Translations under genes and position numbers: made by a program
Part shown: positions 5,875 through 56,831 of the stretch, in pieces
Layout of the letters: each line of letters starts with the position of its first letter
Numbering within the stretch: the first letter of the stretch is position 1
Sequence record: OQ420740.1
DNA: 64,000 bases
Direction: 5' to 3' (one strand)
Origin: Escherichia phage B9-1
Notes under the pieces: model-generated
Database searches by the model: none
What the model was told of the DNA's origin: nothing
What the model saw: only the letters and a program-made list of their open reading frames with translations

Positions 5875-6441
5875 TTATTCAAACTGCAATAGCAAATCCA
5901 CTACCGCGCTAGGTCTGTCAACAAACTCACCGGGTCCACATGCCCACAGAGGGTATCCGTCTACATACCGCCAAATCCAACCTGCAGTGTGGAGTTCTAG
6001 CAGGGCAGTACCGTCCTTACTGTCAACCACTCTTTCCCACAGTGTTGGGCAGCGAAGCTTGAGGATCGGATCCCCTCCCTTATACCCATCCATGTAGATA
6101 CCCATTGCAAAGTTCAGCATCATCTTTTTGTGCACTGACCTCTTACTGAGGGTGCTCATCACTTCCTCTTTGTGGATGTTTGTAAGCTTCTCCTTGGCTA
6201 CCTGCAGATCGTTGCAGCCATTGTTCAGAAGATCTTCCAGACACTTGACCCGAAGGTCGTGAATATCTTTGTCGTGCACCGTTGGTACAGGGTCGTAGCG
6301 ATATAGCACTGTTGATACAAGGTTGCTCGGGTGTGGGTCTGACAGCAACCCATAACCCCAATACTCCTCTGTATCTGAAAGGACAAGACACCCAATGTCT
6401 CTGTCAAGCTTTCCTGTGTTGTAAGCCACATTGACCGCCAT
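5875..6441 (-). CDS. Hypothetical protein (188 aa)
   Basis: Track ORF; no recognised motif. Confidence 0.6.
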   Translation of the reverse strand: MAVNVAYNTGKLDRDIGCLVLSDTEEYWGYGLLSDPHPSNLVSTVLYRYDPVPTVHDKDIHDLRVKCLEDLLNNGCNDLQVAKEKLTNIHKEEVMSTLSKRSVHKKMMLNFAMGIYMDGYKGGDPILKLRCPTLWERVVDSKDGTALLELHTAGWIWRYVDGYPLWACGPGEFVDRPSAVVDLLLQFE

Positions 6442-14938: not shown

Positions 14939-15439
14939 GTGAAAATTAAAATCTTTGCTATTATTTTGAGCGCATTTTTATCGCTGCCTGTTGTTGCAGC
15001 ACCAAAACAAAAAGTATATCACACTTGCAAGCCGTCGGATACTAAGGAAAACATTCTAGCATGCAATATCTACAGGGAGGCTAGAGGGGATGGCACGATG
15101 GGTATGCTGGCATCCGGATTTGCCACACTAAACAGGAAATCTCACCCCAAATACCCAGACACTATAAGAAAGATTGTCTACCAACCTAACCAGTTTTCGT
15201 GGACAAACCACGGCAAAACTTTTAAGGTGACAGAAAAAGATTCATGGGATCACGCTAAAAGTCTTGCAAAGATGCTTCTAAAGGTCTATAATAACAACCA
15301 TGTTGCATACATGGCTATGGATATAACAGGCGGAGCAACACACTACCATACAACAAAAGTACGACCGAAATGGGCAAAAAAGATGCAGAGGACAGCTCAA
15401 TTCGGGAGCCATATCTACTACAAGGAGCGCAATAAATGA
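14939..15439 (+). CDS. Secreted SleB/CwlJ-like cell-wall hydrolase (GTG start)
   Basis: Track ORF 166 aa; N-terminal signal peptide MKIKIFAIILSAFLSLPVVAAP; motifs ILACNIYREARGDG and QPNQFSW typical of Hydrolase_2 family. Confidence 0.65.
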   Translation: MKIKIFAIILSAFLSLPVVAAPKQKVYHTCKPSDTKENILACNIYREARGDGTMGMLASGFATLNRKSHPKYPDTIRKIVYQPNQFSWTNHGKTFKVTEKDSWDHAKSLAKMLLKVYNNNHVAYMAMDITGGATHYHTTKVRPKWAKKMQRTAQFGSHIYYKERNK

Positions 15440-17418
15440 TTGTAAACAGCAATGAAACTAAAGCGGTGCTAACTGGGAATATGGAGGTAACCAGGGGATC
15501 AATTTCTCTGAACAAAGAGACTTTTGGGCTAATCATCAAAGGGATTTATGAAGATAAGGTACTGGCAAGCTGCCGTGAACCGATCTTCAATGCTGTGGAC
15601 TCACATGTTGAGTCTGGACGAGGTGATGTACCGATCATCATTCACTCTCCTACAGACCTTGAACCATACTTCTTTGTGCAGGACGTTGGATTAGGCATGT
15701 CAGAAGAGATGGTCCGTAACACTTTCATGAACCTAGGTGAGTCGACCAAGCGCAACAGCAACGCTCTGGTAGGCAATAAAGGTGTTGGTTCAAAGGCCCC
15801 GTTCAGCATGGTGGACACTTTCGATGTAATCAGTGTGCACAACGGTGTGGAAAGCACATACCTATTGTTCTTGGACCAGGGTATCCCAAATGTCACCAAG
15901 ATCCGTGAGCGGAAGACTGAAGAGCACAACGGGGTAAAAGTTCAGTTTCATGTTAAGAAAGAGCATGTTCTGAAATATCGCACCGCTATTGCATCATGCC
16001 TGCGCTATGCAAAATTTCCGTTCACTGTCACCGACCCGATGACGAGCAAGATGCTGGAGGGAGACAAAGTAGAGGCGCAGTATTATTATGAAAAAGATGG
16101 TTGGAAGATGACCATCCTGAAGGGTTATACCAGCTCTGACGAGAGTCGTGTGGTAATGGGTCACCAACCTTACCGTTCTAAGTTCCTGGAGACACTAATA
16201 GATTATCCTGCAATTTGTGTAGAGATCCCTATCGGAGATTGCAATATTAACCCAGGGCGTGAATGGACCATAGAAGGTCACGACGATGGTGGATTCCAAG
16301 AGCGTTTGGAAGCTTTTGTCAAAGAAGGCATTCGCCTTCGTGGAGCAGAAGTTGTTGCAGAACTGGAGACAGCAAAAACATCCTCAGAAGCACGCGAGAT
16401 GATGAAGAACAGTGGAGTGTTCGGGCACATCTTCGGTAAGAATTTTATGTATGACCGCTGGGAAGAAACAGGGCTAGGAAATTTGGGGGACTGCGAGATC
16501 TTCGCTGGCGGCTTAAATAAAGGCCGCATAGGTTACGCCTGCTACGGAAAGGTAGAATTCTTACGGGGAGTTTATTTAGTATTTAACGACGGAGACGGCA
16601 AATATAACCGGAATAAGTGTAACTACTTAAGCGAGATTACCGGACGCAACGTTTTCTATTGCCGTAACACGGATCTGGTGAAAGAGTTTAAAGAGGCGGC
16701 ACACCATCCGTTTTTTGCAGATACGGTCAAATTGTTATCGGAGCTTCCACGCCGACCTACGAAGAAAGGTGAAACCAAAACCCGTTACGAACCAGGCTAT
16801 TGGGTTAAAAAACTTGAGAAGGATGGTTACTTCCGGCGTGAGCGTATTACTAAGGCAGAGTTCAGGAAGATTAAGCACTGCATACCGTATGAGGGGGATA
16901 TCCAACGCGGAAGTTGTTGGCTAGGGCAGATGAGCAACATCTACCAGCAAGATTATGACCGTGTGCGTTCGGCACTCCAGATTCCTGAAGGGGAAGATCT
17001 GTACCTGGTGTCGGAATCTCGTCTGCTTTGGACTGATCCTGATTGCCAATATGTTACAGAGAAGAATGTGGAACATTTGTTGAAAGAGGATGCTTGGAAA
17101 TTCTTACTAACTCGCGCAGCAAATGAAACTTCATATGACAGCCTGTACAGACAGTTAGGTAAAATTATCCCCATGCAGGATTTTGGAAGTTATCGGCCAC
17201 ATTTCCACAAGTGGGAAGGTAGCACCACGTGGAAGTACGGTGAGCTAAATCATCGTGCCAAAATCTTAATCGCCAACCGGGTTAAGTGCGGGAAGGCCTA
17301 TATTGCAAGATTGGAAAAGAAATATCCACTTTTGAAGCATGTAGGCTTGAAATATTGGGACACTCCTGCTATGATTGAATACCGTGAACTGATTGATACA
17401 AAGAATAACATCAAATAA
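15436..17418 (+). CDS. GHKL-family ATPase domain protein, possibly rIIA-like
   Basis: Track ORF 660 aa; N-box EPIFNAVDS, G1 box VQDVGLGM, G2 box GNKGVGSKA; rIIA assignment is inference from domain type and size. Confidence 0.6.
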   Translation: MIVNSNETKAVLTGNMEVTRGSISLNKETFGLIIKGIYEDKVLASCREPIFNAVDSHVESGRGDVPIIIHSPTDLEPYFFVQDVGLGMSEEMVRNTFMNLGESTKRNSNALVGNKGVGSKAPFSMVDTFDVISVHNGVESTYLLFLDQGIPNVTKIRERKTEEHNGVKVQFHVKKEHVLKYRTAIASCLRYAKFPFTVTDPMTSKMLEGDKVEAQYYYEKDGWKMTILKGYTSSDESRVVMGHQPYRSKFLETLIDYPAICVEIPIGDCNINPGREWTIEGHDDGGFQERLEAFVKEGIRLRGAEVVAELETAKTSSEAREMMKNSGVFGHIFGKNFMYDRWEETGLGNLGDCEIFAGGLNKGRIGYACYGKVEFLRGVYLVFNDGDGKYNRNKCNYLSEITGRNVFYCRNTDLVKEFKEAAHHPFFADTVKLLSELPRRPTKKGETKTRYEPGYWVKKLEKDGYFRRERITKAEFRKIKHCIPYEGDIQRGSCWLGQMSNIYQQDYDRVRSALQIPEGEDLYLVSESRLLWTDPDCQYVTEKNVEHLLKEDAWKFLLTRAANETSYDSLYRQLGKIIPMQDFGSYRPHFHKWEGSTTWKYGELNHRAKILIANRVKCGKAYIARLEKKYPLLKHVGLKYWDTPAMIEYRELIDTKNNIK

Positions 17419-47384: not shown

Positions 47385-47410
47385 AGGGGCTTAAAGGCCC
47401 CTTTCTTTTT
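47385..47410 (+). terminator. Intrinsic terminator
   Basis: AGGGG-cttaaagg-CCCCT then TTCTTTTT. Confidence 0.7.
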
Positions 47411-47412
47411 GT

Positions 47413-49819
47413 CTGCTCTTCTCCTACCATAAACGGCCCTACCTGGCAAGTGGAATAATTGACTAGCCATCAATCCCACACACTGTACAAATATACATAT
47501 AAAATAACTATTGCATAATCTTTCACTGTGTGGTAGCAGGGCCATTTTTACCCGTTTTCTCTCCCAAAAGTGCACGTAATGCCGCTATTGCACAAATTTT
47601 AACCTGATGCACATCTCCAATATCTTGTCAACAACTAAAAATCTTTATAAGTCATACACTTACACAACATAGAAAGCGTGTCCTACGCGAAAAATCGAGT
47701 ATAACTATAGCCGCCAGATCTCAGAATTCACGTACGAACACCATTCTATAGTCTGCAAAGTATTTATTCCAACCACAGAATAACGGAATAGTCAATACCT
47801 GCATAAAATAATTATTCGTGTAAACTGCATAACATAAATCAGCTCAGGTGTCAACATTTTTCGTAAACAGTCCGAAATTATCACGATGAGTTATCATAAA
47901 CAGAGAAATCTTTAGTCGTCTAATGTTTACTGTACATTACTATACTGACTGGAATCATTAGATGACTAAGAGAAAGATAAGAAATAATTAATAATGTAAT
48001 TGTTTTACCTGTAACAATAAGGCAACTATGCAAACGAATGGCATGGCGCGACGGAGTCGCGACATAATATAAAAGCAGTAACAATCACCCCCGTGATAGT
48101 TTTTCTGCAATCTATTACTCAGATCATAGTTGCCTTGTATTTAGTTAATCATGACATAACAAGCAAGGCAACTATAGATCTTCTAATAGTTGCCCTGCTT
48201 TTATATTATGTCATAGATTGTTAGCTTGTTAATTGTTTTCATGCAAACGAATGGCATGGCTTATCATCTCTGTGTAAACTGTTCAGGCGTAAACAGTCTA
48301 TGCGTAAACAGTGAGATATGGAATAGTAACAGCCGTTATTGTGTCATATTGTGTGACATTGTGTCCGGTGTCTGGTGTCCAGTGTGTCAGACAAGTTTTT
48401 CTCCTCTTTGTCAAGTGCTGCATGAAAAATTTACAAACTGGTATGGTAGCATTTTTGCGGCCCTGTTTACATTCAGGAATGTATGTATAATCCTTGTTGT
48501 GTGGGCGTTTAGACGTCTGGACGGTCAGAAGTCTGCAGGTCAATATCTAATCTATTGGTTGCTAACTATATCCCACACAAATAGTAAGAAATATAATTGT
48601 TATATGCGTAAACAGTAACCCATGTTATCAATCCCTGCATGTATCGCCAGTGGTGCGCATAATGGGTATTATGTTAAATTGCCCGTAATGATAACCATTC
48701 TCACAATGATAGGTATTCTCATTCACTCCCACAAGATAGATTGCAAATGTTGTGCCACTGTGTGAACGGCCTGGCCTATTAATTTGCCTCACTGCCTCGA
48801 TATTTGAGAATTATTATAAAAATGAGAAGTATTCCCATTCCGTCCGCCTGGCAGCACTCCTGTAGGACAGGCACAAAATCGGGGTATAACTGGACCTGTT
48901 CAGATATTTCTGGCTGACTCTTCAGGCCTGTGTGGGAAAAGCCAACCTCTCCGGCGGCGGGGAGGGGTCAATTAAAAAATTTACGTGGTGTATGAAGCGC
49001 TCTTCAGGTAAGGCAGGTATTATGGGATGAAACCCTCTTCAGATGATGATATTTGTGGGTGTGATATTTGCTGGAAAGCCAGATATGACGGGACTCCCGG
49101 CAGGGGTGGGGTAGTACAGACAGGGAAAATGTGGGAATGTGATGGAGTAAATTGATCAGGTAGGTAGGATATGGAATATGTTACAAGTATGTTAAATATG
49201 GAGGTAGGATATTTGTAAGATTTGTGTGTAAAATCAAATACTTAAGTGGTGTTGTGGTATTTTCTATAAATAATTCAAGTTTAATAGGTGATATTTGTCT
49301 CCATCCACTTTGTGTGGTAAACAGATTCTAATTGAATTGGTTTACAAGTGTATATAAAGTATACAAATTAAAGATATAAGAAACCCCCCTCCCCCTTCGG
49401 CTACCATTCACCTTTTCCTCTGACTGGTACTTAAACACTTATTCAGACTCTTCAGGTTATCACCCATATACTATATGGCAGTGACTGGTGTCCTCCGGCC
49501 CCTCTTTCGTCACCCGTCCGCTTCGCCATGCTAATGCCATAGCCAAATGTTCGGTTGTTCACCCTGTTCACTCAGGTGTATCTCCATACCCCTTCAAACC
49601 GAAGAGAACAGAAAACCCGAATTACTCGGTAAAAGAAAAGAGAAGAACTTAATTTTATCAAGATAGGCAAGAATGTCAAGGGATGACTGCTCACTAAACA
49701 AGCAAACAGTCATGTGTGGTGGGTAAGTAACTGTGTTGGTAGGAAATTTAGTTGAAAGATGTTATAGGTGCCTCCAGAACCTTAGCTGGGCAGCTAAACC
49801 TGCAAAGCAGACTTGTGTG
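47413..49819. other. 2.4-kb non-coding, repeat-dense region between convergent gene blocks
   Basis: No convincing ORF; CGTAAACAGT x4, ATGCAAACGAATGGCATGGC x2, AAGGCAACTAT x4 in alternating orientation, palindrome GTCGCGAC, CTCTTCAGG x4. Confidence 0.7.
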
Positions 49820-53749: not shown

Positions 53750-54145
53750 TTACTGAAACAGTGCAGATAAATTACCTTCTGGTGGGAACTTATCTGCCAG
53801 GAATGGGGTTAGAACAGTGGCCTTCTGAATATCAGGAGTCCACTCATTGTTCAGAACATCCCAGTAGTACGCAATGTTACTGTGTGGGTGCCGCATTACG
53901 AACTTTTTCCCTTCGTAGTCAGTTGAAACCTCTACAGAAGAAATAACAACAGAATCTTCAAGGGTTTCTTCATAGAAAGATCCACCCTCAAATTTCCAAC
54001 GAGATGCAAGAGCTCCTGCCTTAAACGCTGCAGATAACGGATTGTCTGCAAGAACATACATTTCTTGCACTCTATCACTGCGATCTTTGCTTCTTACGTT
54101 GTATACAGTATCTGAGCTATACTCAACACGGTATAGACTTACCAT
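53750..54145 (-). CDS. Hypothetical protein, paralogue of 55952..56350 (131 aa)
   Basis: Track ORF; shared HP.S...YW.....WTP motif. Confidence 0.55.
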   Translation of the reverse strand: MVSLYRVEYSSDTVYNVRSKDRSDRVQEMYVLADNPLSAAFKAGALASRWKFEGGSFYEETLEDSVVISSVEVSTDYEGKKFVMRHPHSNIAYYWDVLNNEWTPDIQKATVLTPFLADKFPPEGNLSALFQ

Positions 54146-54481: not shown

Positions 54482-54745
54482 TCACCCTACAATCATGGCT
54501 TCAAAAGGTGTCATAAACGAATAAACAGCATCATCATCTGCTTCAGGGAATGCCCCCAAAGACTTCATGTCTGAGCCTTTGACAAATACAAGGTTTTGAT
54601 CAAAAGCTTCTTGGGGATCAATCCGATACATATCTTGTAGGATACCGCTTACCTCCTCATCAAGAGGCGAGTATGCTGTGCACGTTTTTCCAATCAAGCT
54701 TTGAGAATCAGGGTATCCACCTGAAGTTTTAAAATAAACAATCAT
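54482..54745 (-). CDS. Small protein, MKVK family member (87 aa)
   Basis: Track ORF; GYPDSQSLIGKTCTA and LVFVKGSDMKSLGA resemble 60256..60489. Confidence 0.55.
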   Translation of the reverse strand: MIVYFKTSGGYPDSQSLIGKTCTAYSPLDEEVSGILQDMYRIDPQEAFDQNLVFVKGSDMKSLGAFPEADDDAVYSFMTPFEAMIVG

Positions 54746-54837: not shown

Positions 54838-55107
54838 TTACTCTTCTACAACCTCATACACATCCGGAGTTACAATCAACTCCTCTCCATTACCCGGAGC
54901 AACAAACACTACCAAACCTTCCGGTGTGTGCTTTTTAGCCATCTCGATGACATCTTCTCGCAGAGCTGGCTCCATCAGATCAAAACCTTCACCCAGGGCA
55001 TCACGAACCACCTTCATGTAGTCAACTGGTTGTGCTTCAACGATCATGCCTTCAACCAGTCCACAGTTTTTGTCTGCCAGCTCAGTTTGGAATAATTTAA
55101 TTTTCAT
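54838..55107 (-). CDS. Small acidic protein, MKVK-like (89 aa)
   Basis: Track ORF; MKIKLF start, C-terminal YEVVEE. Confidence 0.55.
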   Translation of the reverse strand: MKIKLFQTELADKNCGLVEGMIVEAQPVDYMKVVRDALGEGFDLMEPALREDVIEMAKKHTPEGLVVFVAPGNGEELIVTPDVYEVVEE

Positions 55108-55250
55108 TTAGAGGTCTCCTCAATTATTTGATATTAATAGCCGTAACCTAACACATTAACTACAACTGCGATTGCAAACATAATTTCAAAGCATGCAATC
55201 TCTACATTTGGGATTAATTTCTTAATCGTGCCCATTGTAGCACCTCAATC

Positions 55251-55562
55251 TCAAAAGTCAATCTTTACTTTGCCTTTTCCCTTACCTTTCTTTCCACCAC
55301 ACTTAGCCAACTGGCGTGCTGCAACATCTACCATACGGTCAGTTGCCTCGTAAGCATCACTACCTTTAGCTTTGGCGATAACTTCTTTTCCAGAAGTGTC
55401 AAAAATGAAAGCCATAACTTCCTGGTGATCATTTTCAACTTTTACACTCACACGTGCATAGTTGGCAGAGGGGTGCAAACGCTCCAGCTTGGACATTTTG
55501 TTGGAAATGAAAGACACCATACCTTCAGTGATCTCTACGTTGCCAGTGATTTCAATTTGCAT
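55251..55562 (-). CDS. hpf: Ribosome hibernation-promoting factor / RaiA-like protein
   Basis: Track ORF 103 aa; MQIEITGNVEITEGM...KLERL...VKVEN...AKAKGSDAYEATDRMVDVAARQLAK closely matches the bacterial HPF/YfiA sequence pattern; lysine-rich tail. Confidence 0.75.
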   Translation of the reverse strand: MQIEITGNVEITEGMVSFISNKMSKLERLHPSANYARVSVKVENDHQEVMAFIFDTSGKEVIAKAKGSDAYEATDRMVDVAARQLAKCGGKKGKGKGKVKIDF

Positions 55563-55643
55563 AATGTGTTCCTTTTAAAGAAGAGGGACCAACCCCTCTT
55601 TGAAAACAATGATACTAAATCTGAAGCGTTGTGTCAACAGTTT

Positions 55644-55951: not shown

Positions 55952-56350
55952 TCAGCTTATCTTTTCTTCAACAACCCCATAGCTTGGGGCAGAGTCAAGA
56001 GCTTTCTGGTTTAAAAGTGGTGTAGCAGAATCTGCAAACGGTGTCCAGGTTTTTGTTCTGGCATTCCAGTAATGCTTCACTCTGGAATCTGGATGCACTA
56101 TAACAAAAACTTTTTCACTTGTCAACACATTAATTTCTTCCACACCCTTACTGACAATTTCTCCGTCATAGCCTCCAGTCTGGTATCCTTCGTACCAGGT
56201 TCTTGCATAGGCATAGCCAGCCTGCCAGCATGCAGCCTCCTCCGAGGTGGAGACTACGTAGAAGTCTTTCTCAAATTCGGGGATACGACCTTGCTTTACG
56301 CTCCAAGCTCCGCGAATTTTCATTGTAACTTTGAACAGTTTATTTTTCAC
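55952..56350 (-). CDS. Hypothetical protein, paralogue of 53750..54145 (132 aa)
   Basis: Track ORF; HPDSRVKHYWNARTKTWTP motif. Confidence 0.55.
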   Translation of the reverse strand: MKNKLFKVTMKIRGAWSVKQGRIPEFEKDFYVVSTSEEAACWQAGYAYARTWYEGYQTGGYDGEIVSKGVEEINVLTSEKVFVIVHPDSRVKHYWNARTKTWTPFADSATPLLNQKALDSAPSYGVVEEKIS

Positions 56351-56362
56351 AACAGTTCCCCA

Positions 56363-56617
56363 TCACAGCTCTAAAATATCTGCATCTGACCCTGCCCCAA
56401 AGGCATAATACGAGTCCTCTCCGAAATAATATTCCGGGGCACCAGCCGCGATCAGGTCTGATCCCAAGATGAACACCACATTGTGGCCTACATGGCTGTG
56501 ATTTTGCCGCACAGGATCGTCCCACGGCAACCCTTCGAAGTATACAGCAGGTACTACCTTTCCTTTCAGGAAGGATTGTCCCAAGTAGACGTTAGAGTCA
56601 AGAATTTTAACCTTCAT
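56363..56617 (-). CDS. Small protein, MKVK family member (84 aa)
   Basis: Track ORF; MKVKILDSNVYLGQ...GSDLIAAGA. Confidence 0.55.
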   Translation of the reverse strand: MKVKILDSNVYLGQSFLKGKVVPAVYFEGLPWDDPVRQNHSHVGHNVVFILGSDLIAAGAPEYYFGEDSYYAFGAGSDADILEL

Positions 56618-56831
56618 GATCGTCCTCCACTATCTCCACATCCTCTCCTAGGGCAAAGTTGTAGGTCCACTGACTGTCAAAGCATTCCTGGGATGCACCA
56701 GCGGCAATAAGATCTGCACCTTTTATTTTTAAAAGGTCAGGATAATCTTCGTTAGGGATAGCGGTAAACACTTTCCCCACTAAGGGCTCCTGACCAATAT
56801 AGAAGCTTGAATCTAAAACTTTAACTTTCAT
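56607..56831 (-). CDS. Small protein, MKVK family member (74 aa)
   Basis: Track ORF; MKVKVLDSSFYIGQ...GADLIAAGA...VEIVEDD. Confidence 0.55.
   Translation of the reverse strand: MKVKVLDSSFYIGQEPLVGKVFTAIPNEDYPDLLKIKGADLIAAGASQECFDSQWTYNFALGEDVEIVEDDHEG

Follow-up and report, generated by a model that had tools for sequence, protein, structure and literature searches.

The window, by which we mean the whole 64-kb stretch of DNA analysed here, contains an hpf-like gene on the minus strand at 55251..55562, which the ORF list gives with an ATG start codon at 55562 and a TGA stop codon at 55251-55253. The gene encodes 103 amino acids plus the stop, with the translation MQIEITGNVEITEGMVSFISNKMSKLERLHPSANYARVSVKVENDHQEVMAFIFDTSGKEVIAKAKGSDAYEATDRMVDVAARQLAKCGGKKGKGKGKVKIDF, and is the orthologue of ORF144 (ABI79209) of phage rV5. 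The original prediction had placed a homologue of the hibernation factor HPF at this locus without giving a strand. An ORF occupies exactly these coordinates and its matches to PF02482, TIGR00741 and PDB entries lie far past chance, which confirms the homologue.

Alignment to HPF/RaiA profiles, the check proposed with that prediction, places the protein firmly in the family. It matches the Pfam profile PF02482 (Ribosomal_S30AE) with an E-value of 1.1e-12 and 48.9 bits, the gathering cut-off being 23.7, and scores 47.1 bits against TIGR00741 (HPF/YfiA family) with a cut-off of 40.9. Both curated profile thresholds are exceeded, and membership of the HPF/YfiA (RaiA) superfamily is solid. The best sequence matches among solved structures are to E. 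coli HPF, namely 2rql, 4v8h and 6h4n, with E-values of 7e-12 to 2e-11 over residues 1-89. When E. coli HPF was searched against the window by tblastn, 55251..55562 was the sole strong match (42% identity over 88 aa, E=4e-14), while YfiA matched the same ORF with 25% identity and an E-value of 0.002. The sequence had been described as closely following the HPF/YfiA pattern; the homology stands, but the closeness was overstated, as the aligned identity to E. coli HPF is 40% and that to YfiA 22%. NF007780, the equivalog profile for short HPF, is the best NCBIfam match by E-value, although its 55.5 bits fall far short of the cut-off of 125, and NF007654, the one for RaiA/YfiA, gives 19.4 bits, its cut-off being 158. 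The protein also differs from the long HPF of the Firmicutes type, as it has one Pfam domain (residues 3-88) and no C-terminal dimerisation domain. On these scores, the Vequintavirus protein is best described as a superfamily member that lies nearer to HPF than to RaiA without being an equivalog of either. PHROGs places it in a family of its own, phrog_12469, listed as 'unknown function'.

The predicted structure consists of a folded core and a flexible tail. AlphaFold2 with a 29-sequence alignment gave a pLDDT of 83.4 overall and of about 90 over residues 1-88 (55299..55562, minus strand), the predicted HPF-fold core, over which dN/dS is 0.03-0.11; the single-sequence model was poor (pLDDT 61). 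Strands and helices come in the order beta(2-7)-alpha(13-29)-beta(33-42)-beta(47-55)-beta(60-67)-alpha(70-89) in the model, and the disordered tail is last. In a Foldseek search of the PDB, the model aligned to HPF of V. cholerae (4hei) with a TM-score of 0.81/0.91 and an rmsd of 1.1 Å, and to 6h4n_x, the E. coli HPF chain of a 100S ribosome, with a TM-score of 0.80/0.87. Across these two structures, the predicted model gives TM-scores of 0.8-0.93 and rmsd values of 1.1-1.2 Å. All 35 significant PDB matches are HPF, YfiA or pY proteins, many of them ribosome-bound, and the Vequintavirus protein is thus predicted to adopt the HPF/YfiA fold.

The C-terminal tail, residues 89-103 (GGKKGKGKGKVKIDF; 55254..55298, minus strand), is rich in glycine and lysine and is predicted to be disordered, with pLDDT below 50 at residues 90-103. 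A lysine-rich tail had been noticed originally and is indeed present, residues 87-100 being KCGGKKGKGKGKVK with eight lysines in fourteen positions. The tail is basic in every phage allele compared, yet its sequence is not fixed, and the copy number of the (GK)n unit differs. The APCEc02 allele carries a frameshift in the tail (…GRKKGKGERQSKD), and the Murica allele ends at an early stop after 99 aa. In the window, the TGA lies two codons ahead of the rV5 stop, giving …KIDF (103 aa) compared with …KIDFGE in rV5 and …KIDFLD in ECP32 (105 aa each).

Upstream of the gene, the promoter scan identified a near-consensus sigma-70-type promoter at 55609..55637 (minus strand), TTGACA-17 nt-TATCAT with 11/12 matches, which corresponds to P144 as annotated in rV5 (DQ832317). 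The promoter does not vary between the window, ECP32 and rV5, and a sister clade of more divergent rV5-like phages has kept its -35 hexamer as well. A Shine-Dalgarno-like AAGGAA, read from the sequence, lies 6 nt 5' of the ATG (55569..55574, minus strand) and is conserved in Vequintavirus alignments. The predicted 5' UTR further contains a 7-bp hairpin, AAGAGGG/CCCTCTT (55581..55600, minus strand), which is possibly incidental. Its fold energy of -11.6 kcal/mol is ordinary compared with shuffles (z = -0.28), A141 and V18 have a mismatch in the stem, and the sister clade lacks the 3' arm. With no covariation either, the hairpin was rejected as a regulatory element. In the sister clade (L005..L008, ~5940-6000), the hpf 5' UTR is about 26 nt shorter, and GAGGG, which forms the 5' hairpin arm in Vequintavirus, is the Shine-Dalgarno sequence itself. 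This comparison suggests that an insertion made both the hairpin and the new Shine-Dalgarno sequence in Vequintavirus. In rV5, the hpf-like gene is contained in transcription unit 82-163, a run of '88 mainly small ORFs' (PMC3606486). No infection transcriptome of a Vequintavirus was found in the literature; early expression can reasonably be inferred from the promoter motif and fits the minus-strand block of small ORFs.

Directly downstream of hpf lies a conserved hydrophobic ORF of 33 aa (55134..55235, minus strand; phrog_15151), which is rV5 ORF145. A promoter-like TTGACT-16-TACAAT with an extended -10 TG (55234..55261, minus strand; promoter scan) overlaps the hpf stop codon. The second ORF downstream, at 54838..55107 (minus strand), encodes 89 aa; GenBank records, among them those of ECP32, ECP26, nomo and nom, call it 'sigma 54 modulation factor'. 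It was considered as an hpf paralogue and rejected, as it has no Pfam match and belongs to the unrelated phrog_11868. In the APCEc02 record, the true hpf is 'hypothetical' and the nearby 89-aa ORF bears that label instead, and later records cite APCEc02 for the name. The name on the 89-aa ORF is an off-by-one annotation error that spread from APCEc02. The hpf-like gene itself is called 'ATP-dependent protease La type I' in MT884008-11 and OR062528. By PHROG assignment, the surrounding minus-strand block of small ORFs includes members of the paralogue families phrog_7379 and phrog_5009 (53750..54145, 55952..56350, 56363..56617, 56607..56831 and 54482..54745), the former occurring twice (131 and 132 aa) and the latter two or three times (74, 84 and, weakly, 87 aa). 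A local tblastn search of the 64-kb window for homologues of RMF, Sra and bS21 found none. No tRNA was found, and no Rfam family was found in 44-58 kb. An ORF-poor stretch at ~47400..49700, between the plus- and minus-strand blocks, has no Rfam family at threshold and no tRNA found. It parallels by position the 2.6 kb of rV5 at 104013-106618 in which Kropinski et al. reported 'no observable ORFs'.

The gene is shared throughout the genus. A 2-kb stretch around it shares 99.3% identity with vB_EcoM-ECP32 and ECP26, both Escherichia phages, and 94-99% with over 100 further rV5-like Vequintavirus phages, which identifies the window as DNA of an rV5-like Vequintavirus. The protein is 100% identical to that of ECP32 per protein match and 98% to that of rV5. 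A tblastn search with the protein returned 118 records, 117 of which are Vequintavirus at ≥90% aa identity (116 at ≥95%); the remaining record is a Salmonella genome with its own HPF (40% identity). As a genus marker, the rIIA-like ORF of the window (15436..17418, plus strand; 660 aa, HATPase_c_3 domain) was used as a control and returned 119 records at ≥95% identity. With 118 records against about 119 for the marker, the hpf-like gene is essentially core in Vequintavirus. The original view of an uncommon phage cargo thus holds across phages generally but not within this genus, where the gene is nearly universal. Relatives further out, at about 39% rIIA identity (4MG and Klebsiella phages), gave no HPF match at the tblastn sensitivity used. 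More than 1000 phage records label homologues of the 660-aa ORF 'RIIA lysis inhibitor'. The hpf region is also carried, at about 94% nucleotide identity and with 95-98% aa identity of the protein, by 18 UNVERIFIED 'Campylobacter phage' records (MG0656xx, e.g. MG065672), whose host assignment or sample purity looks doubtful.

When 1.84 billion cluster representatives were searched exhaustively, one 65%-identical protein (P0004) was found beyond the protein's own cluster. Past this, no relative exceeded about 44% identity, the best being enterobacterial short HPFs. A word-indexed protein search returned the protein's own phage clusters and the 64%-identical variant and nothing else; the cellular relatives surfaced in the exhaustive search. 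Another candidate, P0007 (1160 aa), appeared to contain multiple HPFs in nine 'stretches' and was dismissed as a false positive, being a PPC-repeat protein. P0004 (~64-65% identical) is the orthologue in the sister clade. It lies in syntenic position on contigs of 124-137 kb that belong to a more divergent rV5-like phage, in the same block of small ORFs and followed by the same 89-aa ORF. The hpf-like gene has therefore long been inherited vertically in the phage lineage. Its GC content of 42.6% matches that of the phage (43.4%). Over codons 1-88 of 14 Vequintavirus alleles, Nei-Gojobori dN/dS values range from 0.03 to 0.11 (pooled 0.066), with dS up to 0.72. Strong purifying selection on the core of the Vequintavirus HPF is a solid result.

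The hpf-like gene is already known, having been annotated since 2006 and tested in 2019. In the rV5 record DQ832317 it is ORF144, 'sigma 54 modulation factor', with the predicted sigma-70 promoter P144 directly 5' of it. Product names in other records include 'ribosome hibernation factor', 'hpf' and 'RaiA'; the RefSeq name 'RaiA' is generic and not specific, given the identity of 40% to HPF and 22% to RaiA/YfiA. The ribosomal proteins of viruses catalogued by Mizuno et al. 2019 (Nat Commun, PMC6375957) include rV5 ABI79209, which was noted to cluster with gammaproteobacterial HPFs. When rV5 HPF was expressed from pBAD24 in E. coli, mass spectrometry detected the protein in the crude extract and not in the 70S and 100S fractions, and there was no discernible change in 100S formation (PMC6375957). 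The experiment used cells collected at an OD600 of 1 and ribosomes spun down through a cushion with 500 mM NH4Cl; growth phase, stripping by salt and true loss of binding were named as candidate causes of the negative result (PMC6375957). No later functional study of an rV5-type HPF was found in the literature. Cellular RMF, HPF and YfiA are themselves largely stripped by high-salt washing. The negative result is therefore weak, and it leaves 30S binding undecided because the 500 mM NH4Cl wash may have removed the protein. It bears on a lack of ribosome association, which the original prediction had named as a ground for its own refutation.

The residues through which cellular factors touch the ribosome are known from cryo-EM of Gram-negative HPF and YfiA (bioRxiv 10.1101/2025.10.07.680626). 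In these proteins, R83 contacts m4C1402 and H55 contacts the C-terminus of uS9, a basic track on alpha2 (E. coli positions 80, 83, 87, 89, 91 and 93) touches 16S rRNA, and a beta3/beta4 patch comprising T53 and position 62 touches m2G966; V is tolerated at position 62 in HPF of P. aeruginosa, and the YfiA tail heads toward the RMF site (bioRxiv 10.1101/2025.10.07.680626). In the family alignment, the near-invariant columns G7, T12, K22, G58, D69, Y71 and D75 are all present in the phage protein. Among the contacts, the equivalents of K26 and Q29 (K25 and R28), E60, D75, R83, K87 and K91 are retained. Altered are K80 (V), K89 (G), K93 (G), T53 (F52), H55 (F54) and H62 (I). The alpha2 track and the m2G966 patch are thus mixed, with R83, K87 and K91 kept and 80=V, 89=G, 93=G, 53=F and 62=I. 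Lysines have been gained in or just before beta4 (K59, K64 and K66), in addition to the Gly-Lys tail, and the computed pI is 9.0, well above the values for E. coli HPF (6.5) and YfiA (6.2). On residue comparison, the RNA-facing surface looks remodelled, not degraded.

The phage HPF most likely acts as cellular HPF does, binding the 30S subunit reversibly in the decoding channel and parking or protecting vacant host ribosomes, a reading that we hold with moderate confidence. The original prediction had suggested that the protein could throttle host translation or protect ribosomes. Host RNA polymerase would transcribe the gene from the onset of infection. The protein would then bind reversibly in the 30S decoding channel, in the A/P-site region between head and body, through the retained K25, R28, E60, D75, R83, K87 and K91. 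The new lysines of the beta4 region, K59, K64 and K66, may aid this binding, and the flexible Gly-Lys tail could stand in for the end of the basic alpha2 track. The high pI of 9.0 suits a nucleic-acid binder. Once bound, the protein would park or protect vacant host ribosomes, and the altered contacts and the tail would probably result in an affinity and a dependence on partners (RMF, 100S) unlike those of host HPF. Evidence for this model comes from the family profiles, the AlphaFold2 fold, the conserved columns, R83/K87/K91, the pI, selection, distribution, the age of the gene in the lineage, its phage-like GC content and the promoter. Evidence against it comes from the negative result of PMC6375957, the changes K80V, K89G, K93G, T53F, H55F and H62I, and the equivalog score of 55.5 versus 125. 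The homology and selection steps are solid, while 30S binding and a benefit to the phage are what we infer.

The negative association result also accommodates readings in which the protein does something other than hibernate ribosomes. Mizuno et al. (PMC6375957) suggested an anti-hibernation competitor, which would occupy the HPF/YfiA site weakly or transiently, or block RMF with its tail; we regard this as rather unlikely. Formation of host 100S or inactive 70S ribosomes would thereby be prevented or reversed, leaving the ribosomes of slow-growing or stationary hosts free for phage mRNAs. Such a role agrees with the absence of stable association and of 100S induction (PMC6375957), and with the loss of the contact to the uS9 C-terminus (H55) and of part of the alpha2 basic track. 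The phage tail of 14-17 residues is longer than that of HPF, the YfiA tail runs toward the RMF site, and no RMF homologue was found in the 64-kb window. Against competition, the length of the tail differs between phages, and some viable ones carry a truncated or frameshifted version, which speaks against an exact steric function; the abundant host factors would also be hard for a weak binder to displace. It is likewise rather unlikely that the HPF (dsRBD-like) fold has been neo-functionalised and has exchanged the ribosome for a different RNA or protein partner, for instance an mRNA of phage or host or part of a defence system. The absence of ribosome association (PMC6375957), the remodelled contact surface of a much more basic protein and its lineage-specific tail would be explained in this way, as would the isolated sequence cluster, with its own phrog_12469 and a best relative outside the phage clade at ≤44% identity. 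The near-invariant family residues together with R83, K87 and K91 are retained, however, the strong structural matches are all ribosome-bound hibernation factors, and the neighbouring genes, none with an assigned function, point to no other target.

That the gene is a decaying passenger, useless to the phage, is extremely improbable. Its C-terminus does differ between alleles, through shifted stop codons and a frameshift, but the core evolves at a dN/dS of about 0.07 at dS up to 0.72, and the gene occurs in essentially every Vequintavirus genome and in the sister clade at the same position, with promoter and RBS conserved. Selection and distribution effectively refute this reading. The remodelled surface might make the protein a fast-exchanging ribosome ligand with an anti-hibernation or counter-defence function, which would displace or pre-empt host HPF, YfiA and RMF, or else protect the decoding centre against a defence aimed at the ribosome. 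We consider this speculative extension doubtful. If true, such a ligand would keep the ribosomes of slow-growing gut E. coli usable by the phage, an outcome opposite to that of its cellular ancestor.

Reversible, HPF-like binding of the 30S subunit remains the preferred reading. Few phage genes act on the ribosome directly, and this one is part of the core of a genus that is widely isolated and used in therapy and biocontrol. If the protein does park, protect or re-awaken host ribosomes, it would illustrate the way in which a lytic phage copes with hosts that are dormant or grow slowly. What is in print already covers the existence of the gene, its homology and a first functional test with a negative outcome (PMC6375957). 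The window adds only detail, on the remodelled contacts, the variation of the tail, the strength of selection and the divergent sister-clade orthologue.

The S30AE fold is also encoded by the Cronobacter phage GAP32 (K4F6Q6) and the Escherichia phage PBECO4 (L7TII8), grouped in phrog_8990. These jumbo phages are unrelated, however, and their HPFs are only about 21-22% identical to the Vequintavirus protein. They were not recovered by tblastn from it at E≤1e-3, which suggests independent acquisitions (also PMC6375957). With E. coli YfiA/RaiA (pY), the phage protein has in common the fold, the superfamily and a C-terminal extension past helix alpha2, but the identity is only 22-25% and the tails are unrelated, that of the phage being basic and Gly-Lys-rich and that of YfiA having an acidic end. 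The likeness to E. coli short HPF (YhbH; 2rql, 6h4n chain x) is greater, with 40-42% identity and the K23/K26-equivalents, E60, D69, Y71, D75, R83, K87 and K91. It differs in that the Gly-Lys tail replaces the KDKLKQH end of HPF, and in that its expression had no reported effect on 100S (PMC6375957). ORF144/gp144 of rV5 (ABI79209) is the same gene, with 98% aa identity and with position and promoter P144 shared, from which the allele of the window is distinguished by N21H, T56N and a length of 103 versus 105 aa.
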